Positions 10,234 through 60,082 of a stretch of 64,000 bases of DNA are shown here, piece by piece (positions within the stretch are counted from its first letter, which is position 1; each line of letters begins with the position of its first letter). The notes beneath the pieces are model-generated. The model was not told the DNA's origin. It made no database searches and saw only the letters and a program-made list of their open reading frames with translations. Source of the stretch: Acidobacteriota bacterium (GTDB lineage Bacteria > Acidobacteriota > UBA890 > WLXD01); assembly GCA_965248695.1 (NCBI GenBank), contig CBDFKD010000002.1, positions 2,944,001-3,008,000 on the forward strand, written 5' to 3'. Position numbers and translations under genes: made by a program.

Positions 10234-10278
10234 GGAGCGCGGCGATCCCCAAAGCAGCGCGGCGGGCGCGCAGTTCGA

Positions 10279-29777: not shown

Positions 29778-31111
29778 TCCTCGCCAAGAAGGCAATTCCT
29801 CGACGCACGCTGCTGCGCGGGCTCGGCGCCACGGTGGCGCTGCCCTTGCTCGACGCCATGGTCCCGGCTGCGACCGCGCTGGCGCAGACGGCCGCCGGGC
29901 CGATCCGACGCTTCGGGGCGGTCTACGTGCCGAACGGCGTGATCCCGGATCGCTGGTTCCCCTCGACCACCGGTTCGGCGTTCGATTTCTCGTACGCCCT
30001 GAAGCCGCTCGAGCCATATCGCCAACAGCTCAAGATCCTCGGCGGGCTCGACAGCGATCCGGTGCGGCCGCCCGGTGCACCGGGGGCCGTGCACGCCCGC
30101 GCTAGCACCAAGTTCCTGACCAACGTCCACCCCAGCCGCGCGCTCAAGGCCGGCATCTCGATGGATCAGCTTGCCGCCCGTGAGCTCGGACGCACGACGC
30201 AGTTGCCGTCGCTCGAGCTCGCCCTGGACGCCGTTGACGCTGCCGCAACCTGCGACGATGGGAGCTGCATCTACACAGGCACGATCTCGTGGGCCGGGCC
30301 GACGTCCCCGCTGCCCATGGAGACGGATCCGGCGGCGGTCTTCGAGCGACTGTTCGGTGAGGACACCACCGACCCGGCGGCACGCCGCGCCAGCGCGCTG
30401 CGCAAGACCAGCATCCTCGACTCGGTGCTCGGCGAGATCTCCTTGCTCCGCAACCGGGTCGGCCCGAGCGATCAGGCGCGGCTGAGCGGCTATCTCGACA
30501 GCGTCCGGGCGGTGGAACAGCGCATCCAGCGAGCCGTGCAGCAGAACGTCGAGCTGCCGGCGTTCGACCGGCCGGCCGGCGTCCCCGGGGACTATGCCGA
30601 GCACGCGAAGTTAATGTTCGACCTGCAGGTGCTGGCGTATCAGGCCGACATCACCCGCGTCTGCACCTTCATGATGGGTCGGGAATTCAACGGCCGAACC
30701 TATCCCGAGATCGGTGTACCGGATGCGCACCACCCGATCTCGCACCATCGCAACGACCCCGACAAGATGGACAAGTGTGCGCAGATCAACCGCTACCACA
30801 CGAGTCTTTTCACCCATCTGATGGACCGGCTCGCCGAGACACCCGACGGCGACGGATCGCTGCTGGATCAGGTGGTTATCAAGTTCGGCGCCGGCATGAA
30901 CGACGGCAACAGTCATGCGGTCAAGGACCTGCCGATCGTGATCGCCGGCGGCGGCGCGGGTCGTCTCGAGGGCGGGCACTGCCTCCGCTACCCGGAGGGA
31001 ACTCCGCTCGCCAACCTGCACGTTGCGCTCCTCGACAAGCTCGGCGTATCGGTCGAGAGCTTCGGCAACAGCACGGAGCGCCTCGAGCTCGGGTACCTGG
31101 ACGGGGTCTAG
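29774..31111 (+). CDS. DUF1552 (HXXSHH) protein with Tat-like leader
   Basis: RRTLLRGLGATVALPLLDAM, YVPNG, HHPISHH, GSLLD, TPLANL; ATGA overlap with upstream gene. Confidence 0.92.
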   Translation: MILAKKAIPRRTLLRGLGATVALPLLDAMVPAATALAQTAAGPIRRFGAVYVPNGVIPDRWFPSTTGSAFDFSYALKPLEPYRQQLKILGGLDSDPVRPPGAPGAVHARASTKFLTNVHPSRALKAGISMDQLAARELGRTTQLPSLELALDAVDAAATCDDGSCIYTGTISWAGPTSPLPMETDPAAVFERLFGEDTTDPAARRASALRKTSILDSVLGEISLLRNRVGPSDQARLSGYLDSVRAVEQRIQRAVQQNVELPAFDRPAGVPGDYAEHAKLMFDLQVLAYQADITRVCTFMMGREFNGRTYPEIGVPDAHHPISHHRNDPDKMDKCAQINRYHTSLFTHLMDRLAETPDGDGSLLDQVVIKFGAGMNDGNSHAVKDLPIVIAGGGAGRLEGGHCLRYPEGTPLANLHVALLDKLGVSVESFGNSTERLELGYLDGV

Positions 31112-40222: not shown

Positions 40223-42346
40223 TTGAACGGTCGTTGGTCACTGACTCGGGGACTCGGCTGCTCGCTGCTGCTCGCGACCATGGTGCTGTCGCCTGAAGCG
40301 GCGTGGACCATCGGCGCCTCGCAAACGCCCACCGTGGTGGACGACGCGGCGATGGCCAACGAAACGCAGGGCGACAACTGGCTGGCGTTCGGCCGCACCT
40401 ACAGCGAGCAGCGTTTCAGCCCGCTCACCCAGATCAACTCGCTCAACGTCGCCGACCTGTCGGTCGACTGGTACCTGGATCTGCCGACCGACCGCGGGCT
40501 GACCTCCACCCCGCTCGTCGTCGACGGCATTCTGTACTTCATCGGCAGCATGAACGTCGTGCGCGCGGTCGACGGTGCTACCGGCAGGATGCTCTGGGAG
40601 TACGACCCCGACATCGTCGGCAACGCCGCCCACCGCATGCGGTCCGGGTGGGATCACAACCGCGGAATCGCCTTCTGGAAAGGCAAGGTCTACGTCGCTA
40701 CCTGGGACGGTCGACTCAACGCCGTCGACGCCGCCACCGGCGAGGAGCTGTGGAGCGTGATGACGGTCGATCCGTCCGCGCACTACTACATCACGGGGGC
40801 GCCGAAGGTCTTCAAGGGCAAGGTACTGATCGGCAACGGCGGTGCCGATCGCGGCGCCTCGCGCGGCTACGTCACCGCCTACGACGCCGAGACCGGCGAG
40901 CAGGCCTGGCGCTTCTGGATCGTCCCCGGCAACCCAGCCGACGGCTTCGAGAACGACGCCATGCGGATGGCCGCCGAGACCTGGACCGGAGAGTGGTGGA
41001 AGCTCGGGGGCGGCGGCAATTCCTGGCACGGCTTCACCTACGACGCCGAGCTCGATGCGCTGTACATCGGCACCGGTAACGGCGCGCCCTGGAACCAGAA
41101 GCTCCGCAGTCCCGGCGGCGGCGACAACTTGTTCCTGTGCTCGATCGTCGCCCTCGATCCCGACACCGGCGAGTACCTCTGGCATTACCAGACCACGCCG
41201 GGTGAGACCTGGGACTACAACTCCAACATGGACATCGTGCTCGCCGACCTCGAGATCGACGGACGCGAGGTCAAGGCGCTTCTCCACGCCCCCAAGAACG
41301 GCTTCTTTTACGTCATCGATCGGGAAACCGGAAAGCTACTCTCGGCGGAGCCGTACGCCGAAGTGAGCTGGGCCACGGAGATCGATCTGCAGACCGGGCG
41401 CCCGGTCGAGGTTCCCGGCGCCCGCTACGGGGACCGGCCGGCCCGGATCACCCCCTCGTACGCCGGCGCCCACAACTGGCAAGCGATGTCCTACAACCCG
41501 CTCACGGGGTTGACGTACATCCCCGCCATCCACCTGACGATGATGTTCAGCGACGAGGGCATCGATCTCGAGAGCTGGCAGCCCGGCCCGCGTCAGGGCG
41601 CCGGGGTGCGGGCGACCAGCGTCGGATCGCCGCGGTCGGACGGAGCCTCCGGTTCGTTGCTCGCATGGGATCCCGTACGCCAGCAGCTTGCCTGGGAGGT
41701 TCCGCTGACCGGCCTATGGAACGCCGGCACGATGACGAGTGCCGGCAACTTGGTGTTCCAGGGTCGCACCGACGGAGCCTTCGCCGCCCACAGCGCCCAG
41801 ACCGGCGAGACGCTGTGGACCTTCGACATGGGCTCCGGGATCTCGGCGCCCCCGATCACCTACATGATCGACGGGCGCCAGTACGTGGCCCTCCTGGTCG
41901 GCTGGGGTGGCGTGTGGACAGGGATCGGCGGAGCCGAGGCGGCGGCGCCCGGATGGGCGTACGGCGTTCATCCGCGGCGTCTTGTGGCGTTCTCGCTCGA
42001 CGGCGACACTGAGCTGCCGCCCTCGCCGCCACCCATGGTTCCGGTGCCGCTGCATGCCCCCGACTTCGTCGTCGATGAAGCCCTGGCTCAGCAAGGCGCC
42101 AGGGAGTTCGGCGTCGGCTGCGGCGGCTGCCACGGTGGGCTGGTCGCGGGAGGTCAGGCGCCCGACCTGAGGGCGTCGCTCGTGGTGCTGTCAGACGTTG
42201 CGTTCGCGACGGTCGTCCGCGACGGCTCCCGCCTGGCTCGCGGGATGCCGGCCTATCCCGAGCTCACCGAACAGCAGCTCCTGGCGATGCGTCACTTCAT
42301 CCGCGCTGTGGCGGAGCGCGACGCGACAGAATCAAGCGCCCGATAG
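40223..42346 (+). CDS. PQQ-dependent quinohemoprotein dehydrogenase, paralog 2
   Basis: Collinear with 36226-38376; CGGCH haem motif. Confidence 0.92.
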   Translation: MNGRWSLTRGLGCSLLLATMVLSPEAAWTIGASQTPTVVDDAAMANETQGDNWLAFGRTYSEQRFSPLTQINSLNVADLSVDWYLDLPTDRGLTSTPLVVDGILYFIGSMNVVRAVDGATGRMLWEYDPDIVGNAAHRMRSGWDHNRGIAFWKGKVYVATWDGRLNAVDAATGEELWSVMTVDPSAHYYITGAPKVFKGKVLIGNGGADRGASRGYVTAYDAETGEQAWRFWIVPGNPADGFENDAMRMAAETWTGEWWKLGGGGNSWHGFTYDAELDALYIGTGNGAPWNQKLRSPGGGDNLFLCSIVALDPDTGEYLWHYQTTPGETWDYNSNMDIVLADLEIDGREVKALLHAPKNGFFYVIDRETGKLLSAEPYAEVSWATEIDLQTGRPVEVPGARYGDRPARITPSYAGAHNWQAMSYNPLTGLTYIPAIHLTMMFSDEGIDLESWQPGPRQGAGVRATSVGSPRSDGASGSLLAWDPVRQQLAWEVPLTGLWNAGTMTSAGNLVFQGRTDGAFAAHSAQTGETLWTFDMGSGISAPPITYMIDGRQYVALLVGWGGVWTGIGGAEAAAPGWAYGVHPRRLVAFSLDGDTELPPSPPPMVPVPLHAPDFVVDEALAQQGAREFGVGCGGCHGGLVAGGQAPDLRASLVVLSDVAFATVVRDGSRLARGMPAYPELTEQQLLAMRHFIRAVAERDATESSAR

Positions 42347-45417: not shown

Positions 45418-45831
45418 TCAGGACAACGCCACATGCGGACGCACACTATCGACCGTCGTCCGCGCGGCCGTCCTCGCGCGCTCGGCGTCGGCACGATCGT
45501 AGAAGCCCGTCGGTGTCAGGTCTTCGGCACCGTAGAAGGCGATCTCACGGTCACGGCGCAGGTCCTTGGAGATCGCGGTGAGCTCGTCGAGCCGATCCCG
45601 GACCGGCTGTGGCAATCGATCCTGCTCGGCGATCAGCACGCCGGAAACGTCGTGGATCCGTGGCGGCACCACGCCGTGGGCCCGCAGCAAGCCCTTCAAA
45701 GCGAGCTCGACGATCTCCTGCGACTCGCGCACCACGTCCGCCCAGCTGCCTGCTTCGAACAGGACGTCGAGGGCGCGCAGCCGCACATCGGCGCGCCAGA
45801 CGTGGTCCTGTGCCAGGTTCCGGTCATGCAT
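45418..45831 (-). CDS. HEPN domain protein
   Basis: SQEIVELALKGLL, PRIHDV, LRRDREIAFYG; 3 nt downstream of the MNT gene. Confidence 0.85.
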   Translation of the reverse strand: MHDRNLAQDHVWRADVRLRALDVLFEAGSWADVVRESQEIVELALKGLLRAHGVVPPRIHDVSGVLIAEQDRLPQPVRDRLDELTAISKDLRRDREIAFYGAEDLTPTGFYDRADAERARTAARTTVDSVRPHVALS

Positions 45832-45834
45832 CCA

Positions 45835-46380
45835 TCAGGCCGCCTCCATCCAATAGGGATGGCCGTCGATGAGGCGACGGATGATACGGCCTGCGGCGAT
45901 GTCGGCGCGCACACGTGCCAGGCGCCGCGACACGGCGACCTCGCGCTCGAACAAGACCAGCCCGTCAATCGCCGCCTCTGCCCAGATGCCGGCGACGACA
46001 TTGTCGGCGGGAGGCAGGCTGACGAAATGCGGCTCCACTGGCCGACCGTCCCAGGAAACGGGTTCAGCGTCCCAGCGACGATACAGCTCTCGGGTCACCT
46101 GCGCTCCTTCATCGACCACGACGAGCAAATCCACGTCTGAGTCGGCGTGCATCTGGGCGCGGGCCCACGAACCGAAGCCGATCACGCCGGCCAGAGCCTC
46201 GCCGGCGACGCTCGCGGCGCGCGTGACGGCTGCCAGCGCACCGGCATCTGCCATCGACCCGGAGGGCGAGGCGAGCTTGCGTGCGCAGTACTCGTTCAAC
46301 GACAGCCCGGCACCGTCGGCCGCCCGTCGAAGCGCTGTGTGGAGCGCGGGTTCGATGCGCAGGAGGAATCGACCCGACAT
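45835..46380 (-). CDS. HicB-like RHH domain fused to a minimal nucleotidyltransferase (MNT)
   Basis: SGRFLLRIEPALH...A...GLSLNEYC (RHH), followed by FGSWAR....DSDVDLLVV (Pol-beta NTase motif). Confidence 0.85.
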   Translation of the reverse strand: MSGRFLLRIEPALHTALRRAADGAGLSLNEYCARKLASPSGSMADAGALAAVTRAASVAGEALAGVIGFGSWARAQMHADSDVDLLVVVDEGAQVTRELYRRWDAEPVSWDGRPVEPHFVSLPPADNVVAGIWAEAAIDGLVLFEREVAVSRRLARVRADIAAGRIIRRLIDGHPYWMEAA

Positions 46381-46382
46381 GG

Positions 46383-46436
46383 TGATATCATTCATCAACA
46401 GTTAATGATATCAGTTCGACATCTATACTGATATCA
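46383..46436. promoter_or_regulatory. Three TGATATCA palindromes at 23-bp period, probable operator of the RHH-MNT/HEPN operon
   Basis: TGATATCA at 46383, 46406 and 46429 in an AT-rich patch directly upstream of the ATG. Confidence 0.75.
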
Positions 46437-47853: not shown

Positions 47854-49470
47854 CTAGACCGTAAGGCCGTCGGCCGCGTCCTCAGTACCGGACCCGGGGC
47901 CGGCCTTCCGGTCATCGGGAGCAGTAAGCGCCTTCTCGTCGGACCGCAGCGATCTGGTCAGCGAAACAGCCATCGCTACCCCGGCGAACAGGATCGGGAA
48001 CGACGCCAGCAGCGAGGCCAACCGGATGATCTGCAGTCCGCCGACGAACAGCATGAACAGCGGCAACGCGCCCAGTATCAGCGCCCAGAACAGCCGATGC
48101 GAACGACCCGGGTTGTCGTCGGCGTGGAGCTCTCGAGTCACCGTCGCGGCGATCGTGTAGGAGGCCGAGTCGTAGCTCGTGGCGGCAGACACGACGCTCA
48201 CCACCAGCAGGATCCCCAGCGCCACGACGCTCACCGGCAGCGTCGCGATGATCTTGGCCGTCGCCACGCTCATGCCGGCGTCGGCGAGAACGTTGCTCAC
48301 CGGCAGAAGGTTCTCGAGCTCCAGGTACAGCGCGTAGTTTCCGAGGACGAAGAAGGATACCCAGCAGCCGCCACTGCCCAGACAGGTCATCCCCACAATC
48401 ACCTGACGAAGCGTGCGCCCACGAGAGATCCGGGTCACGAAAGTACCTACCACCGGGGCGAAGGCGATCCACCAAGCCCAATAGAAGACTGTCCAGGACT
48501 CGACGAAGCCGGTGTTCTGGATCGGGTCGGTCCAGGTCAGCATGCGAACGAAATTCGTTGTCATCATGCCGAGTGTCTCGGTGGTCAGCTCGAGAATGAA
48601 CAGCGTCGGCCCGACCACGACGATGTAGGCGAGGAGCAGCCCGAAAAGCACCACGTTGAGATCACTCAGACGCTTGATGCCGGCCTCCAGGCCGAGATAC
48701 ACGCTAACGCCGAACAGCACGACGCAAACGCCGATCGCGAGTGCCTCCAACGCGAACGACGTGCCAATACCGAGCAGCTCGGCGGTGCTCGCCGCGACCA
48801 ACGGCGCGATGAACCCGAGCGAGGTGCCGGCACCACCGAGAATTCCGAGTACGGCGGTGAGGTTCACCAGACGGCCGAAAAAGCTTCGATGCCCGTTCGC
48901 ACCAAGCAATCCGTGGCAGGCGGTACTGGCGCACAGGTGGGGCACCCGGTTGACGTAGAACGGGTAGGCGATCGCCACGGTCGGCAAGGCGTAGATACAC
49001 CACGCGACGATCCCCCAATGGAACGGACCATAGGCCGTCGCCCAGCTGATCGCCTCGGCCGACTGCGGCTCGGCCCCGAACGGTGGATTGTTGTAGTAGG
49101 CGACCCACTCCACCGCCCCCCACGACACCAGCGCCGCTCCGGTGCCGGCACAGAACAACATGCCGCCCCAAGAGAACGTCGAGAAATCGGGCTCCTGCTC
49201 CTCGGCGCCGAGGCGCACCGAGCCGAAGCGTCCGAACGCGATCCACGCCAGGAAGACGATGACCCCGACAGCGAACCACTGGTAGAGAAAACCGAAGTGG
49301 CTCGTCAGTCGGTCGTACAGGTCGGAAACGAAGTCACCTGCGCGCTCGGGCGCAAGCCCCAGAGGGACACAGATGGTGCCGACGACGACTAGCACGACGG
49401 AGAGCATCAGCCAGTCGATCTGCGGCGCCAACGCGCCCCGATCGACCGTCTCCCCGGCCGGCTGATTCAA
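47854..49470 (-). CDS. BCCT family (betaine/carnitine/choline) transporter
   Basis: PDFSTFSWGGMLFCAG, FHWG..AW.IY, GIKRLS, WTVFYWAWWIAFAP..G.F.TRISRGRT; TTG start overlaps the upstream TGA. Confidence 0.92.
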   Translation of the reverse strand: MNQPAGETVDRGALAPQIDWLMLSVVLVVVGTICVPLGLAPERAGDFVSDLYDRLTSHFGFLYQWFAVGVIVFLAWIAFGRFGSVRLGAEEQEPDFSTFSWGGMLFCAGTGAALVSWGAVEWVAYYNNPPFGAEPQSAEAISWATAYGPFHWGIVAWCIYALPTVAIAYPFYVNRVPHLCASTACHGLLGANGHRSFFGRLVNLTAVLGILGGAGTSLGFIAPLVAASTAELLGIGTSFALEALAIGVCVVLFGVSVYLGLEAGIKRLSDLNVVLFGLLLAYIVVVGPTLFILELTTETLGMMTTNFVRMLTWTDPIQNTGFVESWTVFYWAWWIAFAPVVGTFVTRISRGRTLRQVIVGMTCLGSGGCWVSFFVLGNYALYLELENLLPVSNVLADAGMSVATAKIIATLPVSVVALGILLVVSVVSAATSYDSASYTIAATVTRELHADDNPGRSHRLFWALILGALPLFMLFVGGLQIIRLASLLASFPILFAGVAMAVSLTRSLRSDEKALTAPDDRKAGPGSGTEDAADGLTV

Positions 49471-50381
49471 GCGAACGCGGCCTTCAACGCCTGGATGTGG
49501 GGCACGCCGAGGCCGCAGCATCCGCCGATGATCTGGGCACCAGCGTCTACCCAGACACGAGTCTCGCGCACCAGATCCTCCGGATCGATGATGTCCACGA
49601 ACTGCCAGTTGGGCATCGTGAAGTACCCCGACTCCGGGTAGGCCCCGATCGGACCCGACCAGTGCTCCTTCACCGTGGCGAGTCCCGGTCCGGTGTCGGC
49701 GATGGCGCTATGCATGACGTTGACCACCCCGATGCCCGATCCAGCCAGCTCGCTTACCAGCTGCCCGACGTCCACCTCCGATCTGTCGAAGCCGACGACG
49801 TTGCCGGTGTCGGCATCGACCATACAGCTCACACCGAGCCACACCGGCAGGCCGGTGGCCACCGCCGCCTCGACCTGCATCGGCGAGTACTCCGGGTGGT
49901 AGCACATCTCCAGCGCGATCAGCTCCGCACCCGCCCCGGCGAGCACGTCGGCCTGGCGGCGAAAGCCGTCAGCGAGTTGCTCGGGCCCGGGAGCGGAGTC
50001 CGGATTTACCCAGGGGCACATCGATCCGGCGATCGCCAAGGGCCCCTGCGCTGCCTGCTCGCGCGCCTGCAGCGCCACCTCGACCCCGCGGACGTTGATG
50101 CTCTCCATCTGGTCGCCGAGCCCCGCGAGGTTCAGCGCTTCCTGGCCAGAGGCGAAGGTGTTGGTAATGATCACCTCTGCCCCGGCCTCGATGTAGTCGA
50201 CGTGGGCGTCACGCACCATCTCGGGGTGCGTCTGCAGCGCCACGCCACTCCAGTTCTTGTCGTTCATCGGCACGCCGCGAGCCTCGAGCTCGGTGCCCAT
50301 GGCGCCGTCGATCAGCACCAGGCCGCCGCCAGCGATCTTGTCGTGTAGCCAATCCGGTCCGCATCGTCCGGGAGGTGCCAT
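49467..50381 (-). CDS. Homocysteine S-methyltransferase family protein
   Basis: IDGAMGTEL, H.DYIEAGAEVIITNTF, IAGS, GAYP, IIGGCCGLG..HI. Confidence 0.88.
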   Translation of the reverse strand: MAPPGRCGPDWLHDKIAGGGLVLIDGAMGTELEARGVPMNDKNWSGVALQTHPEMVRDAHVDYIEAGAEVIITNTFASGQEALNLAGLGDQMESINVRGVEVALQAREQAAQGPLAIAGSMCPWVNPDSAPGPEQLADGFRRQADVLAGAGAELIALEMCYHPEYSPMQVEAAVATGLPVWLGVSCMVDADTGNVVGFDRSEVDVGQLVSELAGSGIGVVNVMHSAIADTGPGLATVKEHWSGPIGAYPESGYFTMPNWQFVDIIDPEDLVRETRVWVDAGAQIIGGCCGLGVPHIQALKAAFA

Positions 50382-50535
50382 GCCGATGATCTCCTTCGTT
50401 TGCTTTTCGCCAGCGAGAACGGCGGGGCCAGCGTGCGGAACGGGCTTCAGCGCATGGGTCAGATCCGACACGGGCGCCGCTGGTGCGCACGGAGTCTACA
50501 CCCGCGCGCGAGCATAGGGACCAGGCACGGCCTTC

Positions 50536-51762
50536 ATGCCAACCGGCTACCCTAGATCCGTGAAGGAGATTGGAGCCTGTATCTCGATTGCGCTACTGGT
50601 GGCGACCGCGCCCGGCGCCCCGGACGGCGACGGACCGGTCCGTAGCGCGCCGATCATCACGCCGATGGCGGCCGCCATCGACATCCCGACCTGCGGCAAT
50701 CGGCGGCAGCTGTACTCGGTGGCGCCCGTCGACCCCGCCGATCTGAGCCACATCATCCCGTTGGGCAACCTCAATCCGCCGGGGCACACTTTCCCCACGG
50801 CCCACTTCTACCAGCACATCAGGCGCGTGGTGCCAGGCGACCGTTCGACACCCTCAGTGGAGGTGCCGGTCGTGGCGCCAGGCCAGGTCTGGATTACCCG
50901 CATCTCCTACACCGAGAACCTGGATCAGGGAACGAAGGACTACTCGTTGCGGTTCTCGCCGTGCGTCGAGCACGAGGCCTATTTCATCCACCTGACGACG
51001 CTGGCTCGCAAGCTCGACCGGCAGCTGGTGGAGCCGCTGAGTTGCAACGAGTACACCACCGGGGGCGAGCAGTGGCGACAATGCACCAAGGAGGTGCACA
51101 CAGAGCTTGCCGCCGGCGACGCGATCGGGACTGCCGGCGGGGCGCTCGACCGCAACGCCCTCGACCTCGGCGCCTCCGATTCCAGAGCCACGCCATCCGT
51201 CTACGCGAATCCGCAGCGCTGGGAGCATCGGCCCCAGCAGCTGATCTTGGTGTGCGCGCTGGACTATTTCGCCCCTGCGGTGCGACGGCGGCTGCGCTCA
51301 CTTCTCGGCGACGCCGAGACCCGTCGCAAGGAGCCGCCGCGCTGCGGTGAGGTGGCCCAGGACGCCCCCGGCACTCTGCAGGGGATCTGGTTTGTCGCCG
51401 GAACTCGCGAGCTGATCTCCGAGGACCGTCACCTTGCCCTGGCTCACGACAACATCGATCCGGCCAAGGGTGTGTTCTCGGTCGGCACGTCGATGCGCAA
51501 GAGTGGCCTCGCTTCCGCCACCTATTTCTTCGAGCCGGCGACGGCCGGGAGACGAAACCGCGACTTCGGGCAGGTCCGCAAGCGCAACAAGGTCTACTGC
51601 TACGAGGTGAGCCGCCGCTTCGCCGCGGAGACAGACCCGCTGACGGTCATCCTCGCCATGTTGACCGGCCCGTCGACGTTGCGGCTGCAGCGCAGCGAGC
51701 TCAGCGCCTGCGGCGGTCCCCCGTGGCAGATGGGTAACGACTACACCGAGTTCGAGCGCTAG
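50536..51762 (+). CDS. Hypothetical secreted Cys-rich protein with a possible degenerate M23-like domain
   Basis: Hydrophobic leader; PVVAPG, YFIHLT, LAAGDAIGTAG, ALDLG. Confidence 0.6.
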   Translation: MPTGYPRSVKEIGACISIALLVATAPGAPDGDGPVRSAPIITPMAAAIDIPTCGNRRQLYSVAPVDPADLSHIIPLGNLNPPGHTFPTAHFYQHIRRVVPGDRSTPSVEVPVVAPGQVWITRISYTENLDQGTKDYSLRFSPCVEHEAYFIHLTTLARKLDRQLVEPLSCNEYTTGGEQWRQCTKEVHTELAAGDAIGTAGGALDRNALDLGASDSRATPSVYANPQRWEHRPQQLILVCALDYFAPAVRRRLRSLLGDAETRRKEPPRCGEVAQDAPGTLQGIWFVAGTRELISEDRHLALAHDNIDPAKGVFSVGTSMRKSGLASATYFFEPATAGRRNRDFGQVRKRNKVYCYEVSRRFAAETDPLTVILAMLTGPSTLRLQRSELSACGGPPWQMGNDYTEFER

Positions 51763-51840: not shown

Positions 51841-53067
51841 ATGAAGAGCACCTGGCGACGAAGTACCACGATAGCCCTTGGCGCCCTCGCAGGGCTGGCT
51901 GCCTGCTCCAATCAGGAGACCGGGGTGCCGGAGCAGACGAACCCGTCGCCGCAGACCCCCGCGGTGCAGGCGGCGCACGACGCAGTCAGCAACCCCGACG
52001 ATACGTACGTCGACGAGCTCGGGATGGAGTTCGGGATACCCATCAACCATCCTGCCATCGTCCACCCGGGCTCCGACGACTTTCCCAGCGGTCCGGCGGT
52101 GGGCGAGCGACTCCCCGACTTCACGCTGCCGAACCAGCACGGGGAAATGATCGATTTCCAGCAACACCACGCGGGCCAGAAGGCGGTTGTTGTCTTCTAT
52201 CGATCCGCCGTCTGGTGACCCTACTGCATGACGCAGCTGGTCGAGCTGCAGAAGAAGATCGGCGAGTTCGAAGCTGCTGGCATCCGCGTGTACGGCGTCA
52301 GCTACGACCCGCAGTCGGAGCTCGAGGCCTTCTCGGACCGCTACGGGATCACCTATGACCTGCTTTCGGACGTCGATTCGGCGGTTATCCGGCGGTTCGG
52401 GATTCTCAACACACTCGTCGACCCGGACGACCCTCGCGCCAGCGACCTGTATGGGATTCCGTTTCCGGGCACCTATGTAGCCGACGCATCCGGCGTCGTC
52501 ACCGAGAAGTTCTTCAACCGCCACTACGCGACCCGCGACTCGGCTGGGACGATCCTCGACAAGGCGCTCGGCGAGGTCCTGCTTCACGAGGAGGCACCGC
52601 AAACTGATCAGCAAGATGAGCGCGTCCGCATCACCGCCTTCCTCTCGGATACGGATCTGAAACTCGAGGTCACCAACACGCTCTACGTCCGTCTCGAGCT
52701 GGCGGCGAACCACCACGTCTACGCCGAGCCCCTTCCCCAGGGTTTCTACCCGACCACGGTCGACGTGCAACCGGCCCGTGGCCTCAGGGTCGGCGACGCG
52801 ATCTACCCGCCAACCAGACCGAGAGAGTTCGAGATCCTCGGCGTGACGCTCAACGTCTACGAGGATGCCGCCGAGATCGCTGTTCCAATCACCGCGACGA
52901 CACTGCTGTGGGACGATTCGGAAACCCTCGAGGCCGATAGCACCCTGCCGCTCGAGCTGGATATCGTGGTCGACTACCAGGTCTGCAGTGAGACCATCTG
53001 CTACCGGCCGGAGACGGCGCGACTGCAGATCGAGGTACCGATCGCGGCATTGGAAGAGCCGCAGTGA
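51841..53067 (+). CDS. Selenoprotein: lipoprotein AhpC/TSA-type redoxin (UxxC) fused to a DsbD-N-like domain, 408 aa
   Basis: Track ORFs 51841-52218 and 52228-53067 are in the same frame, joined by TGG TGA CCC TAC TGC = W-U-P-Y-C. The redoxin fold (VGERLPDFTLPNQHG...VVVFYRS...VYGVSYD...LLSD...PGTYV) spans the TGA. Lipobox LAAC; C-terminal YQVCSETICY. Confidence 0.88.
52233..52249 (+). promoter_or_regulatory. Putative bacterial SECIS
   Basis: GCAGCU-GGUCG-AGCUGC: perfect 6-bp stem, loop starts with G, 20 nt between UGA and loop. Confidence 0.65.
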
Positions 53068-53352
53068 TCCGCGGGTCGTAGGCACTGCCCCATCGCCGGA
53101 AAACGTCGCCACGGCCATCACGAATTGACCGGGCGGTCGGCTTCCGCGCGGCGACCGAGCCGACACCGCACCGTCAAGAATCCGAGCTGCGCTGAGTCCG
53201 CATCCCCGGACTGGTATGGTGCCTCCTTCTGCCGCCCTGTGAGCCCGCTATGAGCTCCAGGCTGCAGAACGAGAGGAGCTAATGGGCAACGAAAGAGCGC
53301 GTCACGAAGGGGATCGACACCTGCTCGCGAGCGGCCAGCATCGAGAACCGTC

Positions 53353-55530
53353 GTGAGTGGGCGCGGCCCTCGGATCGTCATGGCGTGCGGTCTTCTGGCG
53401 ACCTTCGCGACCGGCACTGCGGCAGTGCCGGCCTTGCAGAACCCTCAACAGGTGTTCGACCGCGCGGTCGAGGACTTCCGCGCCGGACGGCTACACGATG
53501 CCGCGACGGCGTTCGACCGCCTGGTCGAGCTCGCCCCGGGCTCCGCTGCGCATCTGTGGCAGCGCGGCATCGCTCTCTACTACGTCGGTCGCTACCAGGA
53601 CTGCCGTGAGCAGTTCGAAGCACACCGCACAGTCAATCCGAACGACGTCGAGAACGCTGCCTGGCACTTCCTGTGCGTTGCCCGCGCCGAGTCTCCGGCG
53701 GCGGCGGGCGCCGCGCTGTTGCCGGTGGGGCCGGACGCGCGCGCACCGATGGCGGAGATCTATCGCATGTTCCGCGGCGAGCTGGCGGCCGATGAGCTAT
53801 TGACCGCGGCCGGCGCCGGGGTATCGGCGCAGTTCTACGCCCACCTCTACCTTGGCCTCTATCACGAGGCTTGGGGACGCGACGAGGCCGCGCTACGACA
53901 CATCCAAACCGCCGCCGACAATCGATACGCCGACGTAGGTGGGTACATGCACATGGTGGCACGGGTGCACTTGGGCGCTCAGCGAACTGACTACGGCGAC
54001 CTCCTGGATCTCTTCGAGGGTTGGCGAGCGTTCGAGAGACCGACCTTCACCGACGGCGTGCCGGACTACTCCCGCGCTGCGATGGCAACACAGGCAGACG
54101 CGCTGCCGGCCTACCGCGCCCGGCTCGAGGCGATCGAGATCGACTCATGGCCGATCGCCCAGCAGATCGACTGGCACCTGGTGCGCGCCGAGATGAACGG
54201 GCTCGACTTCGATCATCGCGTACGGCGACCGTGGGCCAACAATCCTGCCTTCTACGTGATGCTGTTCCCGGCCGAGTCGGACGTGCCTGCCCACGAGGGC
54301 CCGGTCATCCACGGCTGGATCGATACCTGGACGTACGACTACCCGCTATCGCCCGCCGACGCCGCCGCGCTGACCGAGCGCGTGGCGGCGATCCCGCCGC
54401 TGCTGGAGCAGGCGCGCGGCAATCTGGTGGGCGATGGACACGATCTGTGGCGCATGAGCGTGGGCTCGATACGTGGCCAGAGTGCCAACCTCGCCAGCTT
54501 CGGGGAACGAGTAGCCGGCACGAGCGCCGCACTCGACCGCGCGGTCCAGGAGGCCATCGTCGCCAGCGATCGCTTCGCTGGGTGGCTCGAGCTTCAGTTA
54601 CCTTCCAAGACCGGGGTGTCGGGCGTCGGAAAAGACAACTACAGCTGGTATCTGCAGAACGTCCACCTTGTTCCCTACACCTGGGAGCAGCAGCTCACGC
54701 TGATGCGCCGCGAGCTCTGGCGCGCCCATGCGTCGCTTCGGCTCGAAGAGAACCGCAACCGCCACCTGCCGCGGCTGAGCCGCTACCAGTCTGCCGTCGA
54801 GTACGACGAGGCGCTCAACACCGCGGTCACCGAGTACATGGAGTTTCTCGCGGAAGAAGAGATCCTGACGATCCGTGACTACATGGACGAGGCGCTGCGC
54901 GAGCGGATTGGTCGTTTTGCGCCCCCCTCGCGCGCCGACGGACTGCGCGGCTTTTTCGCCGAGGTCGACTACCGAGACGGCGAGGTCATGCGCACCCACG
55001 GGTATCACTGGTTCGACCTCGCCCGCATGCGACTCGAGCCGCACGAGAGCCCGATTCGGCGCGTTCCTGCCCTGTTCAACATCTATGACGCGCGCTCCGA
55101 GGGCATGGCCACCGGCATCGAGGAGATGATGATGCACGCCGGCGCCTTCGACGATAAGCCGCGCGCCCGTGAGCTGATCTGGATCTTGCTGGCACAACGC
55201 GCTGCACGCGCTATCGGCGGTCTCATGCAGCACGGTCGGGAATGGTCGCTACAGGAGGCCGCCGAGTTCGCCTCCGAGTGGGTGCCGCGCGGCTGGCTAC
55301 CGTCCGACGGGGCGACGATCCAGTTCGAGGAGCACTTCTACCTTACGCAGCCCGGCTACGGCACGAGCTATGTCATGGGCAAGATCGAGATCGAGCAGCT
55401 TCTTGCCGAGCGCGCCATCCAGCTTGGCGACGAGTTCAGCCTCAAGCGATTCATGGACGAGTTTTCCGCCGTCGGAGTGATCCCGGTATCCATGGTTCGC
55501 TGGGAGCTCACCGGTCGCAGCGAAGAGTAG
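53353..55530 (+). CDS. TPR (NlpI-like) domain fused to a DUF885-like domain, secreted
   Basis: N-terminal LWQRGIALYY...NPNDVENAAWHFLC...FYAHLYLGLY...YMHMVARVH. C-terminal RSEGMAT..EE, Y..QPGYGTSYVMGK..IE.L, LGDEFSLK.F.DEF. Confidence 0.7.
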   Translation: MSGRGPRIVMACGLLATFATGTAAVPALQNPQQVFDRAVEDFRAGRLHDAATAFDRLVELAPGSAAHLWQRGIALYYVGRYQDCREQFEAHRTVNPNDVENAAWHFLCVARAESPAAAGAALLPVGPDARAPMAEIYRMFRGELAADELLTAAGAGVSAQFYAHLYLGLYHEAWGRDEAALRHIQTAADNRYADVGGYMHMVARVHLGAQRTDYGDLLDLFEGWRAFERPTFTDGVPDYSRAAMATQADALPAYRARLEAIEIDSWPIAQQIDWHLVRAEMNGLDFDHRVRRPWANNPAFYVMLFPAESDVPAHEGPVIHGWIDTWTYDYPLSPADAAALTERVAAIPPLLEQARGNLVGDGHDLWRMSVGSIRGQSANLASFGERVAGTSAALDRAVQEAIVASDRFAGWLELQLPSKTGVSGVGKDNYSWYLQNVHLVPYTWEQQLTLMRRELWRAHASLRLEENRNRHLPRLSRYQSAVEYDEALNTAVTEYMEFLAEEEILTIRDYMDEALRERIGRFAPPSRADGLRGFFAEVDYRDGEVMRTHGYHWFDLARMRLEPHESPIRRVPALFNIYDARSEGMATGIEEMMMHAGAFDDKPRARELIWILLAQRAARAIGGLMQHGREWSLQEAAEFASEWVPRGWLPSDGATIQFEEHFYLTQPGYGTSYVMGKIEIEQLLAERAIQLGDEFSLKRFMDEFSAVGVIPVSMVRWELTGRSEE

Positions 55531-55543
55531 GACGAGGGCTGAG

Positions 55544-57160
55544 ATGCTCGATGTCGGCGACGCGTACCCTCCCTTCGAGCTACAGCGTGCCGATGGGGAG
55601 GCGTGGAGCTCCACCCCGGAAACCGTGGCCGGCCCGGTGCTGCTCGCGATCCTGGAGACCGACTGTCCGACGTGTCGGCTGATCGTCCCTTACCTATCGC
55701 GCCTCGACGAAGCGCTGTCTCCGACCCCCGGGCGAGTAGTGGCGGTGTCGCAGGACTCTTCGGCCGACACCGACGCAATGCTCAGCAGTCTCCGCTTCAG
55801 CCCGCCGGCGCTGATCGATGACCAGCTCGACGTCTCTCGAACTTTCGACCCCCCGAGCGTGCCGGCGCTGTTCGTTCTGGGAACCGATGGACGCCTCGAA
55901 TTCGCTTCCATTGGCTTCGATAAGGGCGACCTGAACCAGATCGCCGCCCGCATGATGGAGGCCTACGGGCTGGCAGTCCGGTGCATCGCCGAACCCGACG
56001 ATGGGGCACCGGAGAGCAAGCCCGGCTGTGCATCGCGGCACGTGGAGCCCCCCGACGATGCCGCGATGCCACGCGCGGCGCCGATCGACCTGCACCCGCA
56101 GGAGGGAACACGGGCGACCAGGCTGACACTCGACGAGGATATCGACCTCTACGAGTACTGCATGGACGCCGGGTTCTCGCCGTGCCTGCCGGTGGTCCCT
56201 CCCACTGCGGCGCGCGTCGATCGCACCCTCGCGGCGACCCCCTTGCCCGCCGACCGGGTGATCGGCCTGGTACCTCCGTGCTACGGCGAGGCTACCGTCG
56301 AGAAGATCGCCGCCAACGCCGTGATGGCCGGCTGCAAGCCCGAGTACATGGAACTGCTGGTGCCGCTGATACGAGCCGCTTGCGACGAGCGCTTCAACCT
56401 CCATGGCGTGCAGGCCACTACCCACTCCGCCACACCGTTGGCGATCGTCAGTGGCCCGGCCGTCGATCGCCTCGGACTGACCTGCGGCGCCGGGCTGTTC
56501 GGAAACACGGCGCGCGCCAACAGCACCATCGGTAGGGCGTTCCAGCTCGTGATCACGAATCTCGGCGGCGCGCTACCGGGCGAGATCGACATGTCGACGT
56601 TGGGGAATCCCGGCAAGTTCTCCTATTGCATCGCCGAGAACCGTGCGGCGAGCCCCTGGGAGCCGCTGCATGTCGAGGACGGATTCGGTGCTAACGACAG
56701 CACGGTCACGCTGTTCGGGGCGGCCGGCATCCAGGAGGTCAGCGACCATACCGCTCGTTCCGGCGCGCAGCTCTTGCGAACGATCGCCGCGACGCTCGCC
56801 GTGGTCTGGAGCTGGCGTGTCTGTGGGCGCGTCGACGCGTTGCTGGTGATGTCGCCGGAGCATGCGGCGACAATGGCGGCGGATGGATTCACCAAGACCG
56901 ACATACGCGATTTCCTGTTCGACAACACCGGTGTGCCGTTGCGGGCGTTCGATCACGACGGCACCGAGGGGTCTCAACTTCGCGACAGGTACGATGAGAT
57001 CCGCATCGATGGGGAGCCGCACTATCGCAAGTTCAGCGACCCGAGCCAGATTCGCATTGTCGTCGCCGGCGGCACAGCAGGTAAATTCTCCGCGGTGATC
57101 GGCGGTTGGCCATCCGGTCCCGGCGGTACCCAGATCGTCACCTACCCGGTCGCGTGGTGA
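55544..57160 (+). CDS. CxxC redoxin domain fused to the uncharacterised PVVPPT domain (partner of the UGSC selenoprotein)
   Basis: N-terminal thioredoxin fold DCPTC, SQD, SVPALF, KPGC. C-terminal LPVVPPT..RV, ATVEKIAANAVMAGCKPEY, QATT, RANSTIGRA, TLGNPGK, AEN..SPWEPLH, IVVAGG. Confidence 0.8.
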   Translation: MLDVGDAYPPFELQRADGEAWSSTPETVAGPVLLAILETDCPTCRLIVPYLSRLDEALSPTPGRVVAVSQDSSADTDAMLSSLRFSPPALIDDQLDVSRTFDPPSVPALFVLGTDGRLEFASIGFDKGDLNQIAARMMEAYGLAVRCIAEPDDGAPESKPGCASRHVEPPDDAAMPRAAPIDLHPQEGTRATRLTLDEDIDLYEYCMDAGFSPCLPVVPPTAARVDRTLAATPLPADRVIGLVPPCYGEATVEKIAANAVMAGCKPEYMELLVPLIRAACDERFNLHGVQATTHSATPLAIVSGPAVDRLGLTCGAGLFGNTARANSTIGRAFQLVITNLGGALPGEIDMSTLGNPGKFSYCIAENRAASPWEPLHVEDGFGANDSTVTLFGAAGIQEVSDHTARSGAQLLRTIAATLAVVWSWRVCGRVDALLVMSPEHAATMAADGFTKTDIRDFLFDNTGVPLRAFDHDGTEGSQLRDRYDEIRIDGEPHYRKFSDPSQIRIVVAGGTAGKFSAVIGGWPSGPGGTQIVTYPVAW

Positions 57161-57194
57161 AAGCAACCGCCGGCCACTTCACAGGAGCCCGGTC

Positions 57195-57734
57195 ATGCCA
57201 GAGATCTTGGTAAACCCGCTCGACGAAGCCGCCCAGGCACCACAGCCGGCGGCCCCTCGGCTCGACGAGCTCGAAGGCAAGACGATCGGACTGCTCGACA
57301 TCAGCAAACCCGGCGGCAGCGTGCTGCTGGACAGGTTGGAGGAGCTGTTGCGCGAGCACCATGGGGTAACAAGCTTCGTGCGGGAGGTGAAGCCGACGTA
57401 CACGAAGCCCGCCCCCGACAGTGTGCTGCAGCGGCTCGGTCTCGCCGACGGCGTCATCGAGGCGCTGGCCGACTGAGGATCGTGCACAACGTGCAGTTTG
57501 CACGACTCCGTCAGCCTCGAGAATCGCGGCATTCCCACCGTTCCGATCGCCACCGACGAGTTCCGCACTGCCGCACGAATCCAGGCGAACCGACTCGGGC
57601 GTCCGGATCTCGATGCAGTCTACGTTTCGCATCCCATCCAGGATCAGACCGAGGCCGAGATCCAGGCGCGGGCGGAAGCAGCCATCGGACAGATCGTCGA
57701 CCGACTCACCACCGCCGCCGGCAACGAGACCTGA
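57195..57734 (+). CDS. UGSC-motif selenoprotein, 179 aa
   Basis: Track ORFs 57195-57476 and 57498-57734 are in the same frame: GAC TGA GGA TCG TGC ACA ACG TGC = D-U-G-S-C-T-T-C, then HD...LENRGIPTV...HP. N-terminal APRLDELEGKTIGLLDISK. Confidence 0.9.
57490..57504 (+). promoter_or_regulatory. Putative bacterial SECIS
   Basis: CGUGCA-GUU-UGCACG: perfect 6-bp stem, loop starts with G, 19 nt between UGA and loop. Confidence 0.62.
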
Positions 57735-58712
57735 TCACAGTCCGAGCAGACGACCGGCGTTGCCCCCCAGGATCGCGGCACGCTCGGCGTCCGAGATCTG
57801 TAGCGCGTCGATCGACGTTCGCATCTTCTCCAAACTGCCGATCATGTGCGGGTAGTCGCTGCCGGCAACGAGCTGGCCGGCTCCCGCGAAGTCGATCGTC
57901 AGCTGCAGGCAGGCCGGATCGAAGTTGACCGTGTCGTAGTAGAAGTCCTTCAGAACTTCACTCGGCCGCCGGCTCAGATGCTCGCGACAGCGACGGAAGG
58001 CCTCGTAGCCGCGGTCGAGTCGCTCGGCGAGGAACGGAATCGCGCCGCCGTTGTGGCACAGCACCCAGCGAATCCCCGGAAACTGTTCCGGCACGCCGGC
58101 GAAGACCAGGTGAGCCGCCGCCAGCGTCGTGTCGAAGAGGAATCCGACCAGCGGCATGAGCATGAACTCCTCCATCGCCTCCACCCCGAGCGGATACGTC
58201 GGGTGGATGTAGATGATCGCTCCGGCGCTGCTGGCACGCTCATAAAGGGGCCAGAACCGCTCGTCGGCCAGAGCAACGCCACCGGCGTTGCTGTACAGCA
58301 TCACGCCAGGAAAGCCGTGCTCGTCGAGTACCCGGTCGAGCTCCAGCGCCGCGGCGGCCGGGTTGTTGAGCGGCAGGTGCCCGAGTGCAGTGAATCGATC
58401 CGGATGGGCGGCCACGGCGGCGGCCAGCCCGTCGTTCACCACCATCGCCAGGTCGGCGGCACGCTGCGGCGACTCGATGCTGGTACCCGGAGCGGTGAAG
58501 CTGATGACCTGGCGGTCCACACCGCTCTCGTCGATCACGCCACAACGAAAATCGATGTCGCGATGACCCGGAACCAGGACGTTGTAGTCGCCGGGCGAGT
58601 GCAAGACCGGGTTGCCGTGGTCGTCGCTGCTGACGCGGAACGCACTGGGTCCCGCCGTGACCGCAGCGACGTAGTCCGGAGGAAAGTAGTGGTTGTGGAA
58701 ATCGATGATCAT
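57735..58712 (-). CDS. Amidohydrolase_2 family (ACMSD-like decarboxylase/hydratase)
   Basis: IDFHNH, VND, IYIHP, CHNGGAIPF...R, FYYDT, GSDYPH, ILGGNA. Confidence 0.9.
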   Translation of the reverse strand: MIIDFHNHYFPPDYVAAVTAGPSAFRVSSDDHGNPVLHSPGDYNVLVPGHRDIDFRCGVIDESGVDRQVISFTAPGTSIESPQRAADLAMVVNDGLAAAVAAHPDRFTALGHLPLNNPAAAALELDRVLDEHGFPGVMLYSNAGGVALADERFWPLYERASSAGAIIYIHPTYPLGVEAMEEFMLMPLVGFLFDTTLAAAHLVFAGVPEQFPGIRWVLCHNGGAIPFLAERLDRGYEAFRRCREHLSRRPSEVLKDFYYDTVNFDPACLQLTIDFAGAGQLVAGSDYPHMIGSLEKMRTSIDALQISDAERAAILGGNAGRLLGL

Positions 58713-60082
58713 GCGGAGCTCACTGACGGGGACCTGGCAGTCCACCACATGTACACCGGCAGGCCGGCACCGACCATCCCAAGGCCTGAGAGGCTCCCAG
58801 CGGGATCACTGATGATGTGGTTGACGACAACGGCGAACGCGGCGAGGGCGAACAGGAATGGCGTCACGGGATAGCCGACGATGCGGTATTCGGGCGTCCG
58901 CTTGGCCGACCTTCGCAGCTTGATCAATCCCAGCGCCAGAACGCCAAAGAACACCCATTCGGTGTAGATAACGCGCGTGAACAGCGCTCGATAGGTTCCG
59001 CTGAGCACCAGCACCGATGCCCAGAACGCCTGCAACACTACCGCGCGATGCGGCGTCCGATAGCGTGGGTGCACCTCCCCCACCCAGGCGAACAGCAGGC
59101 CGTCGCGCGCCATCGCGTAGTAGACCCTGGGTCCGGACAGAACGATTCCGGCGAGGGCACCGAAGGTCGAAAACAACACCAGTGCGATCATCGCCGTGCT
59201 GCCACCGGTGCCCAGCACCGTGTCGGCGGCGTCAGCCGCGATGCGCTGAGAATGGATCACCGTATCGATGGGCAGGAGGTAGAAGTACACCCCGTTGAGT
59301 GCGATGTAGCACGCCGTAACGATCGTCACGCCCCAGATGAGGGCCCGTGGGATGGTGCGGTGCGGCTCGATCGTCTCCTCGGCGTTGTAGCTCACCATAT
59401 GCCAGCCGCCGAAGGCGAACAGAGCTGCCGACACCGCGAGCACGAAGTCCGACAGGCCGCCGCCGCCGAGGAACGCGAACCCGGGTAGAGCCACCAGGCC
59501 CGATCCATCAGCGACTGCAACGTCAGACACAGCCTCCTCCGAGGCCGGCTGCCCGAGCGCCAGGCCGAGGACGACGATGAGCACGATTGCGGCCACCTTC
59601 ACCACGGTGAACGCCGCCTGGAGGTTGCTACCGTGCTCCACACCGCGGTAGTTGACCGCCGACAGCAGCAGAATCGTCGCCACAGCCACCAGTCGCGTCG
59701 ACGTGTCACCGAGCGGGACCAGGAAGGCAGCGTAGGATGCGAACACCATCGCCACCGCAGCGATGATTCCCGAGTGCATCACCCAGAACATTGCCCAACC
59801 CCACAGGAAGCCGAGCCAGCCGCCGAATTGCGCGCGTAGATATACATAGACGCCACCGCTGGCCGGCATCGAAGAGGCCAACTCGGCGACCACCAGCGCC
59901 CCGAGCATGGTCAACACGCCGGCCGTCAGCCACACCAGCGCGGCGCCGGTCATCGAGGGTACCCGTCCGGTGACCTCGGACGGCTGAACGAAGATGGAGG
60001 CGCCGATGATCGTGCCGACAACCATCGCCGTCGCGTGACGCGGGCCGATGGCGCGACGCAGCTCTGTCCCGCCGGGGGTCAA
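58709..60082 (-). CDS. APC family amino acid permease
   Basis: GTIIGASIF, AELASSMP.SGG.YVY, FAFGGW, EE...P.RTIPRA, PRVYYAMARDG, TP..A; ATGA overlap with the amidohydrolase; start approximate. Confidence 0.9.
   Translation of the reverse strand: MTPGGTELRRAIGPRHATAMVVGTIIGASIFVQPSEVTGRVPSMTGAALVWLTAGVLTMLGALVVAELASSMPASGGVYVYLRAQFGGWLGFLWGWAMFWVMHSGIIAAVAMVFASYAAFLVPLGDTSTRLVAVATILLLSAVNYRGVEHGSNLQAAFTVVKVAAIVLIVVLGLALGQPASEEAVSDVAVADGSGLVALPGFAFLGGGGLSDFVLAVSAALFAFGGWHMVSYNAEETIEPHRTIPRALIWGVTIVTACYIALNGVYFYLLPIDTVIHSQRIAADAADTVLGTGGSTAMIALVLFSTFGALAGIVLSGPRVYYAMARDGLLFAWVGEVHPRYRTPHRAVVLQAFWASVLVLSGTYRALFTRVIYTEWVFFGVLALGLIKLRRSAKRTPEYRIVGYPVTPFLFALAAFAVVVNHIISDPAGSLSGLGMVGAGLPVYMWWTARSPSVSSA

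Follow-up and report, generated by a model that had tools for sequence, protein, structure and literature searches.

A UGSC-family selenoprotein and a redoxin-linked PVVPPT-domain protein as a probable two-part selenoenzyme in an Acidobacteriota genome

We analyzed a 64,000-nucleotide stretch of an Acidobacteriota genome (contig CBDFKD010000002.1, assembly GCA_965248695.1; hereafter the window, whose positions serve as coordinates, on the + strand unless stated) that harbors four consecutive genes, termed G1 to G4. The last two of them, G3 (55544..57160) and G4 (57195..57734), probably encode a cytoplasmic, thioredoxin-fed selenoenzyme made of two parts, with G1 and G2 being separate, likely exported proteins that merely lie upstream; we assign this reading a probability of roughly 0.6. 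G3 combines an N-terminal redoxin with a C-terminal domain marked by a “PVVPPT” motif, named UPD here, and G4 is a 179-amino-acid selenoprotein of the UGSC family, both genes being identified from profile matches and homologues.

The association between UPD and UGSC was assessed by searching genomes, limited to one for each species, with a UPD alignment, which yielded at least 80 related loci of 39–56% identity (designated by L numbers; homologous proteins carry P numbers). The 80 loci stem from Acidobacteriota, Methylomirabilota, Binatia, Poribacteria, Chloroflexota, Beta- and Gammaproteobacteria, Actinomycetes, and one Bacillaceae isolate. UGSC genes were identified with a local UGSC profile in six-frame translations of these loci, keeping matches of more than 100 profile positions (n = 70, window included). 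A UGSC gene occurs in 67 of the 80 loci, and in 65 of 80 it is located within 300 nucleotides (nt) of UPD on the same strand, at a median gap of 48 nt, either downstream (41 loci) or upstream (24 loci) of UPD. Fifteen of these 65 close pairs share a frame that contains neither TAA nor TAG between UPD and UGSC. Domain architectures were determined with local profiles for the 150 best UPD representatives, and Pfam agreed for the 30 of them to which it was applied: UPD stands alone in 78, follows UGSC in 36 (UGSC-UPD), precedes it in 4 (UPD-UGSC), follows a redoxin in 11, and bears other extensions in 21, hence a fusion to UGSC in either order in 40/150. Twelve of the 36 UGSC-UPD proteins contain the whole UGSC sequence and 24 begin just past the selenocysteine (Sec) position, while all four UPD-UGSC proteins stop just short of it; ends at the Sec codon are expected, because open reading frame (ORF) calls are cut at TGA. 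UPD almost always travels with UGSC, as a neighbor or as a fusion.

Thiol-reductant modules are attached to the same pair in various forms. In 18/80 loci UPD carries a fused redoxin, and further UPD fusions involve Pyr_redox_2, a thioredoxin-reductase-like domain (P0279), and FeThRed_B, the catalytic chain of ferredoxin-thioredoxin reductase (P0178); in L014 and L054, separate Pyr_redox_2 genes adjoin the UPD/UGSC pair. The close linkage of UPD and UGSC, their fusion in either order and the interchangeable thiol-reductant modules therefore point at one enzyme fed by thioredoxin-type chemistry, and support UPD and UGSC as a putative functional pair. The initial annotation of this DNA, made from its letters, had proposed that the PVVPPT domain of the third gene works together with the UGSC subunit and that a thiol relay feeds both. 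The first proposal is borne out by the linkage and fusion counts, the second by the redoxin, Pyr_redox_2 and FeThRed_B fusions.

Under the standard code, the region falls into six ORF pieces, whereas reading through TGA restores four co-oriented genes, all on the + strand. Upstream of G3 and G4, these comprise G1 (51841..53067), a predicted lipoprotein with redoxin and DsbD_N-like domains (profile matches; lipobox by eye), and G2 (53353..55530), containing tetratricopeptide repeats (TPR), a DUF885 domain (profile matches) and a hydrophobic N-terminus. ORF coordinates agree with the initial annotation in orientation and in the intergenic gaps of 285 nt (G1–G2), 13 nt (G2–G3) and 34 nt (G3–G4). 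Shine-Dalgarno-like GAGG and AGGAG sequences are found upstream of G3 and G4, the gaps between the four genes contain no terminator-like site, and the 13-nt gap suggests co-transcription of G2 and G3 here. The G+C content is ~65% throughout the window.

Two of these genes contain an in-frame TGA, and several lines of evidence support both as predicted Sec codons at active-site Cys positions. The first (52216..52218, +) specifies U126 of G1 in the motif WUPYC, the second (57474..57476, +) U94 of G4 in DUGSCTTC (residues 93–100). Family profiles match without a break across both of them: Pfam AhpC-TSA covers residues 87–222 of G1 (E 2e-30) and the UGSC model PF24696 residues 5–172 of G4 (E 3.4e-49, 167.7 bits at a cut-off of 25), which also passes the NCBIfam model NF041046 “UGSC family (seleno)protein” (149.7 bits, cut-off 125). 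The Sec column of the 70 UGSC matches holds TGA in 68, TGC in one (L055, a Sphingomonas metagenome-assembled genome (MAG)) and TCG in one (a divergent paralogue, L054); excluding the window, TGA is kept in 67/69 related genes from many phyla. The U126 column of G1 is occupied by Cys (W-C-x-x-C) in all four aligned near-full-length homologues (P0322, P0418, P0420, P0428), and Sec-redoxins of the G1 type in L011, L057 and L074 have TGA at the equivalent place. The in-frame TGAs that the initial annotation had recognized in thiol motifs of the first and last genes thus hold up, and the homologues, to whose Cys or Sec residues it had tied this claim, do carry Cys or TGA there (69/70 for G4, 4/4 Cys for G1).

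Public databases cut these genes at TGA, as would be seen if the codons were ordinary stops in pseudogenes or split genes: 33 of 39 UGSC relatives in the public protein set are fragments of 99–127 amino acids, 116 of the 120 listed G1 homologues reach a query coverage of only 55–68%, and the three partial G1 homologues that were aligned (P0316, P0324, P0430) start with the Met just past TGA, like the window's own ORF. The UGSC fragments have this length because gene callers stop at the Sec TGA. Against the codons being stops, 68/70 genes across many phyla have TGA precisely in the column of the active-site Cys, the flanking sequence is conserved in both directions, and so is a downstream hairpin. 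TGA might instead be read genome-wide as another amino acid, but G1, G3 and G4 all terminate with TGA, which hence serves as a stop elsewhere in this genome; the recoding is therefore local and not a genome-wide change of code. Both versions of this explanation appear exceedingly improbable to us. Two full-length database UGSC proteins, P0126 and P0127, display Arg and Gly at the Sec column, which may reflect real CGA/GGA codons or translation with another code. No tRNA gene is located within the 64-kb window, and no SelA, SelB or SelD domain was found among the 36 ORFs scanned in this window.

Hairpins resembling the Sec insertion sequence (SECIS) follow both TGAs. In G4, the element CGUGCA-GUU-UGCACG (57490..57504, +) comprises a 6-bp stem and a GUN loop, 13 nt past the UGA. 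The 45 nt from the UGA onward align without gaps in 68 UGSC genes, nucleotides 17–22 pairing with 26–31. Among 67 distinct sequences, each of the six core pairs forms in 94–100%, in a constant register, and their covariation score of 0.216 exceeds the 0.108 obtained after shuffling (reached by 0/500 shuffles) and that of every slid register. Pair 21–27 is CG in 43 and GC in 22 sequences. UGSC proteins occur with two motif types, UGSCT[T/S]C and UGSCTSW, and the Cys-to-Trp codon change between them (UGC to UGG) is offset by a silent Val change that leaves the stem paired. The switch from C-G to G-C coincides with the Cys-to-Trp and silent Val changes, and may thus reflect few evolutionary events. 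The minimum free energy (MFE) structure of the window's G4 is a longer, alternative fold using the same 3′ arm (z −2.96), whereas the conserved form is the short hairpin. In G1, the hairpin GCAGCU-GGUCG-AGCUGC (52233..52249, +) lies 14 nt past the UGA; its register is common to L011 and L074, the latter differing in both bases of two pairs, and is found in 3/4 genes in all. Neither the 54- nor the 60-nt stretch has this hairpin as its MFE fold, and the 60-nt fold reaches a z-score of only −1.4. Rfam returned nothing in the window at the gathering threshold. Conserved registers and compensatory changes bear out the SECIS-like hairpins that had been noted after both TGAs. As judged from its sequence, G4 is a UGSC-family protein in which UGA is decoded as Sec, aided by a conserved hairpin 13 nt downstream.

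UGSC-containing proteins are a computationally defined, major ocean selenoprotein family (Zhang and Gladyshev 2008, PMC2398784). The same study counts 255 Sec and 21 Cys forms in the Global Ocean Sampling data, placing UGSC among the most numerous selenoproteins, and already reports a “UGSC/Unknown_1” fusion, in which Unknown_1 may correspond to UPD. Reviews from 2022 (PMC9312934) and 2026 (PMC13188914) still list UGSC without an assigned function. A full-text literature search for “UGSC” found no functional study, and a search on selenoprotein neighborhoods found no relevant paper. Compared with the family models PF24696 and NF041046, G4 differs in nothing, sharing the U-G-S-C motif and the Sec position and passing both cut-offs; the family is known since 2008, and the window genes are ordinary members of known, uncharacterized families. 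Within the G4 motif U94-G-S-C97-T-T-C100, U94 and G95 occur in all of 48 sequences, and conservation of S96 and C97 is 90% or higher; invariant or near-invariant residues of the family include K38, D93, U94, G95, S96, C97, T98, S101, H103, D104, H146 and P147. A structure model (predicted local distance difference test (pLDDT) 93.5) describes UGSC as a Rossmann-like, five-stranded alpha/beta sandwich, in which Sec would be placed at the start of helix 95–110, directly after strand 86–92. A PDB sequence search with UGSC gave nothing significant, and an ESM Atlas search with a Cys form of UGSC, own family left out, gave no usable match.

Turning to the partner protein, the redoxin of G3 (residues 4–127; 55544..55924, +) has a thioredoxin fold according to Pfam and homologues, with a CPTC motif at C41/C44 that is present in 104/120 close homologues. 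It is connected to UPD by a linker with the conserved motif KPGC (residues 158–161; 56015..56026, +), whose PGC is retained in 99/105 close full-length homologues and in 9/10 distant redoxin-UPD representatives. The CxxC and PGC redox centers that the initial annotation had ascribed to G3 are both supported by this conservation, and that of linker residue C161 fits a shuttle role. Close G3 homologues bearing source names are called TlpA-family disulfide reductase or peroxiredoxin.

UPD itself, delimited by alignments, spans 349 residues (190–538; 56111..57160, +) and contains the motif LPVVPPT as well as C264, N326, R331, C362, E365, W372 and H440. No Pfam or NCBIfam model matches it, and the family is very large, with at least 7,440 significant matches in a 90%-clustered protein set and 4,838 representatives at E ≤ 1e-3 in a 50%-clustered library, 1,141 of them at E ≤ 1e-30. 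In an alignment assembled without motif selection (n = 56), R331 and E365 are found in all sequences, C264 in 54 and C362 in 52. UPD copies from the loci (n = 87) keep N326, R331, E365 and W372 without exception and C362 in 75. The subfamily of the window reads FSP[F/C]-LPVVPPT at the motif, compared with TDG-LPVVPPT elsewhere. The structure model of UPD is confident (pLDDT 92.8, predicted template modeling score 0.92), and a PDB sequence search was without significant result. Class I fumarate hydratase, the best Foldseek match, was rejected as a relative (E 5.5e-4, template modeling (TM) score 0.24, root-mean-square deviation 17.5; not homology), as were Toblerone-fold amide hydrolases, whose weak matches (TM about 0.2) do not indicate homology either. 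The nearest UPD clusters in the ESM Atlas are its own unnamed family, one cluster (score 0.89) having PF24696 on 16% of its members.

These features are compatible with the following mechanism. Reducing power of the thioredoxin system would enter via the N-terminal CPTC redoxin of G3, and the cysteine of the PGC linker may shuttle electrons onward. A selenenylsulfide between U94 and C97 of UGSC, with Sec at a helix N-terminus in the Rossmann-like fold, would then be reduced, and the resulting selenolate could attack a substrate held in a UPD pocket formed by C264, C362, N326, R331, E365, W372 and H440. Alternatively, the selenolate may attack an oxidized cysteine of UPD. We liken this scheme to protein B of glycine and proline reductase, in which a Sec UxxCxxC subunit cooperates with a substrate-binding subunit. 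G4 has the GrdB-type motif in the form of UGSCTTC, the motif of GrdB being UxxCxxC (PMC13188914). Protein B of glycine/sarcosine/betaine reductase (GrdB/GrdF with GrdE) and D-proline reductase (PrdB with PrdA) resemble the proposed enzyme of G4 and UPD in joining a Sec UxxCxxC subunit to a separate substrate-binding subunit, with re-reduction via thiols. The Sec region of G4 also gives a weak match to GrdF (E 0.0026), a much larger protein (435 model positions compared with 179 amino acids). The hosts of the UGSC/UPD pair, which we take to be largely aerobic soil and water lineages, differ from those of the Grd/Prd comparison. More tentatively, and with somewhat less than even confidence, UPD and UGSC could be the halves of a widespread, unnamed Sec-dependent reductase that combines a new substrate-binding fold with a miniature GrdB-like Sec module and is served by interchangeable feeders of the thioredoxin type.

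Several observations weigh against a two-part reductase of this kind. Tested as a member of the GrdF family (NF040794), G4 fails with 16.5 bits against a cut-off of 800, and PF07355 does not match G4, nor, even at E ≤ 10, three other UGSC proteins. None of the Gly_reductase, GrdE and PrdA models recognizes UPD, and neither GrdE/PrdA nor GrdA, GrdC or PrdC are present among the scanned window ORFs or the operon-like neighbors of the pair. G4 is hence placed outside the GrdB/GrdF/PrdB family, because the profile test fails and GrdE/PrdA-type partners are absent. In roughly a third of the 70 UGSC members, the third Cys of UxxCxxC is a Trp. Thirteen of the 80 UPD loci have no UGSC nearby while retaining the conserved UPD residues, and UPD may therefore act without UGSC or with a distant copy. 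D213 of UPD is kept in 86/87 locus copies, a frequency that, like that of C264 in the locus set, is biased by the search patterns which found the loci, and is replaced by Pro in the window's subfamily. Foldseek identified no convincing structural relative of UPD in the PDB. Finally, the neighbors of the pair give no clue to a substrate, as no neighbor family occurs in more than 12/80 loci: thiolase, 3-hydroxyacyl-CoA dehydrogenase, enoyl-CoA hydratase, TctC and SDR alternate with family III CoA-transferase, Amidohydro_2, DUF6282, LarA-like and TauD proteins. The two largest non-UPD neighbor clusters were dropped as antisense ORF artefacts of a crude gene caller.

The missing substrate-related gene, together with the two conserved cysteines of UPD and a weak alignment of the UGSC motif to the Cys-rich, cluster-binding loop of putidaredoxin (E 0.087), would suit a different role, in which UPD and UGSC do not reduce a substrate and serve as carriers or sensors of sulfur, selenium or a metal, or in which UGSC is a redoxin that keeps C264 and C362 of UPD reduced. 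We regard this as unlikely: only UxxC is universal in the family, and a third Cys so often exchanged for Trp speaks against a cluster site; UGSC is predicted to fold in a Rossmann-like and not a ferredoxin-like manner; fused thioredoxin-reductase-like and FTR-like (ferredoxin-thioredoxin reductase-like) domains are better suited to repeated catalytic turnover than to carriage; and the invariant Arg, Glu, Asn and His of UPD resemble a small-molecule site. A substrate-reducing UPD/UGSC enzyme is thus preferred over a carrier or sensor.

Several loci deserve separate mention. Two or three copies of UPD or UGSC-UPD in tandem are present in L054 (5256-13644), L036, L033 and L072; L054 includes the UGSC paralogue with Ser (TCG) at the Sec column, and in L072 three UPD genes follow one another, with UGSC 3.9 kb away. 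In L076 (7392-8993), which belongs to the cultured Bacillaceae isolate Robertmurraya sp. 2P01SA (NZ_CP154845.1), a UGSC (TGA) and UPD pair adjoins enoyl-CoA hydratase, MmgE/PrpD, DctM and DUF6282 genes, making this strain a possible experimental host. L059 (labelled Candidatus Nitrosocosmicus sp.) and L021 (labelled Enterobacteriaceae) are MAG contigs with UGSC/UPD and unexpected labels, for which binning contamination or gene transfer is possible. In the Bryobacterales loci L001–L003, a conserved ORF of ~360 amino acids without Pfam match directly follows UGSC (about 9640-10770).

The initial annotation had considered all four genes as one redox cluster, possibly linked to an extracytoplasmic redoxin. 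G1 has an N-terminus ending in LAGLAAC, with a lipoprotein-type lipobox (LAAC, by eye), followed by the redoxin and by a DsbD_N-like domain (PF11412, DsbD alpha; residues 278–394, 47.5 bits at a cut-off of 25). The CxxxxC center that had been listed there is borne out in this second domain, C382 and C387 being invariant in 8/8 aligned sequences. G1 shares a conserved Cys pair with the DsbD alpha domain but differs from DsbD in the Cx4C spacing of the cysteines and in having the domain fused to a redoxin instead of the DsbD membrane domain. The redoxins of G1 and G3 share the AhpC/TSA fold with “Prx-like 1” UxxC selenoproteins and TlpA/ResA oxidoreductases, have their WUxxC (G1) or CxxC (G3) site at the thioredoxin-type position, and have Cys-form homologues; they differ from these proteins by the additional DsbD_N-like domain in G1 and by UPD in G3. 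The peroxidatic Cys of peroxiredoxins is found in the context PxxxT/SxxC. Both G1 and G3 match the peroxiredoxin fold in Pfam and stay below the cut-offs of the NCBIfam peroxiredoxin/ResA equivalogs (65.5 vs 140), and by eye the W-U-P-Y-C and D-C-P-T-C sites are of the thioredoxin type. Although BCP-type peroxiredoxins are the nearest solved relatives of G1, its active site is thioredoxin-like, and G1 may act as an extracytoplasmic thiol-disulfide oxidoreductase whose WUxxC site is fused to a DsbD-alpha-like electron-input domain. G2 contains DUF885 (PF05960; 94 bits, cut-off 32.4) in two stretches, best at residues 569–717, and its best PDB match is 3o0y, a “lipoprotein” (E 1e-7). By eye, export signals are present in G1 (lipoprotein) and G2 (hydrophobic N-terminus), but in neither G3 nor G4; G2 is probably exported.

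Conservation of the neighborhood separates the two halves of the region. A gene like G2 (TPR-DUF885) stands beside the pair in 0/80 loci, the full architecture of G1 is found in 1/80 (L011), and a Sec-redoxin of the G1 type in 3/80 (L011, L057, L074). In L011, an Acidobacteriota locus, a Sec-redoxin+DsbD_N gene precedes a redoxin-UPD gene and its UGSC partner by 1.7 kb, and the WUPFC Sec-redoxins of L057 and L074 lie ~2 kb or less from the pair. Together with the co-orientation of the four genes, the 13- and 34-nt gaps among G2–G4 and gaps free of terminator-like sites, these cases would agree with a single pathway in which exported G1 and G2 join G3 and G4 in one thiol/selenol relay. A mere hint of shared synteny comes from the G1 homologue P0319 and the G3 homologue P0008, for both of which the longest contig listed measures 10,711 bp. 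Such a relay is nonetheless rather improbable, given the rarity of G1 and G2 at the pair; L011 itself has an extracytoplasmic function (ECF) sigma/anti-sigma pair in between and no DUF885 gene; and as G1 and G2 have export signals and G3 and G4 have none, a single relay would need to cross the membrane, while no DsbD- or CcdA-type membrane electron carrier was found among the 36 window ORFs scanned. Gemmatimonadota are not represented among the 80 loci listed, though the closest protein homologues, where named, are from Longimicrobiales and Gemmatimonadota, and several of the G3 homologues nearest in sequence are assigned to the latter phylum; in this lineage, G1 and G2 may therefore be linked to the pair. 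Of the four-gene cluster, the G3/G4 pair and its relay are retained, as their co-occurrence is conserved in the comparison of gene neighborhoods that had been suggested as a check; G1 and G2 are not part of the conserved set, a four-gene relay as a conserved unit is not supported, and the supposed connection to an extracytoplasmic redoxin is limited to the Sec-redoxins of 3/80 loci.

Other features of the window are as follows. A 408-amino-acid ORF with a hydrophobic N-terminus (50536-51762, +), without Pfam match or relative in the 80 loci, is positioned 78 nt upstream of G1. On the opposite strand, an Amidohydro_2 gene (57735-58748, −) is convergent with G4, their stop codons abutting with zero spacer; relatives of it adjoin UPD/UGSC on the same strand in L025 and L033. 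A BCCT betaine/choline-type transporter gene overlaps a homocysteine S-methyltransferase gene (47854-50471, −), which looks like a pair for uptake and use of methyl donors. A scan of the window for further genes with in-frame TGA picked up nothing beyond G1 and, at 45835, a gene junction, and was not exhaustive, since its filter also missed G4. Adjacent genes at 45418-46398 (−) encode HEPN and nucleotidyltransferase (HicB-like N-terminus) proteins in the layout of a HEPN/MNT toxin-antitoxin system; the upstream stop TGA of this locus is in frame with the next gene, producing a pseudo read-through candidate in a naive scan. Three genes for pyrroloquinoline quinone (PQQ)-dependent dehydrogenases are present at 17340-19355, 36226-38376 and 40223-42346, two of which also encode a cytochrome c domain at the C-terminus, and planctomycete-type PSD/PSCyt and DUF1552 genes at 27234-31111.

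To the previously described family, the present analysis adds how often it is paired with UPD, that the two are fused in either order, which other reductant modules are fused to UPD, which UPD residues are conserved, and a SECIS consensus. Given this pairing with one defined partner that is variably fused to reductant modules, the orphan UGSC can be tested as an enzyme of two proteins, for which an electron path is predicted, candidate catalytic residues are specified, and at least one host, Robertmurraya sp. 2P01SA, is in culture. If correct, the proposal would provide the first enzymatic context for an orphan selenoprotein family that ranks among the most abundant in aquatic metagenomes, and would extend selenium chemistry in the style of Grd and Prd to aerobic bacteria of soil and ocean.

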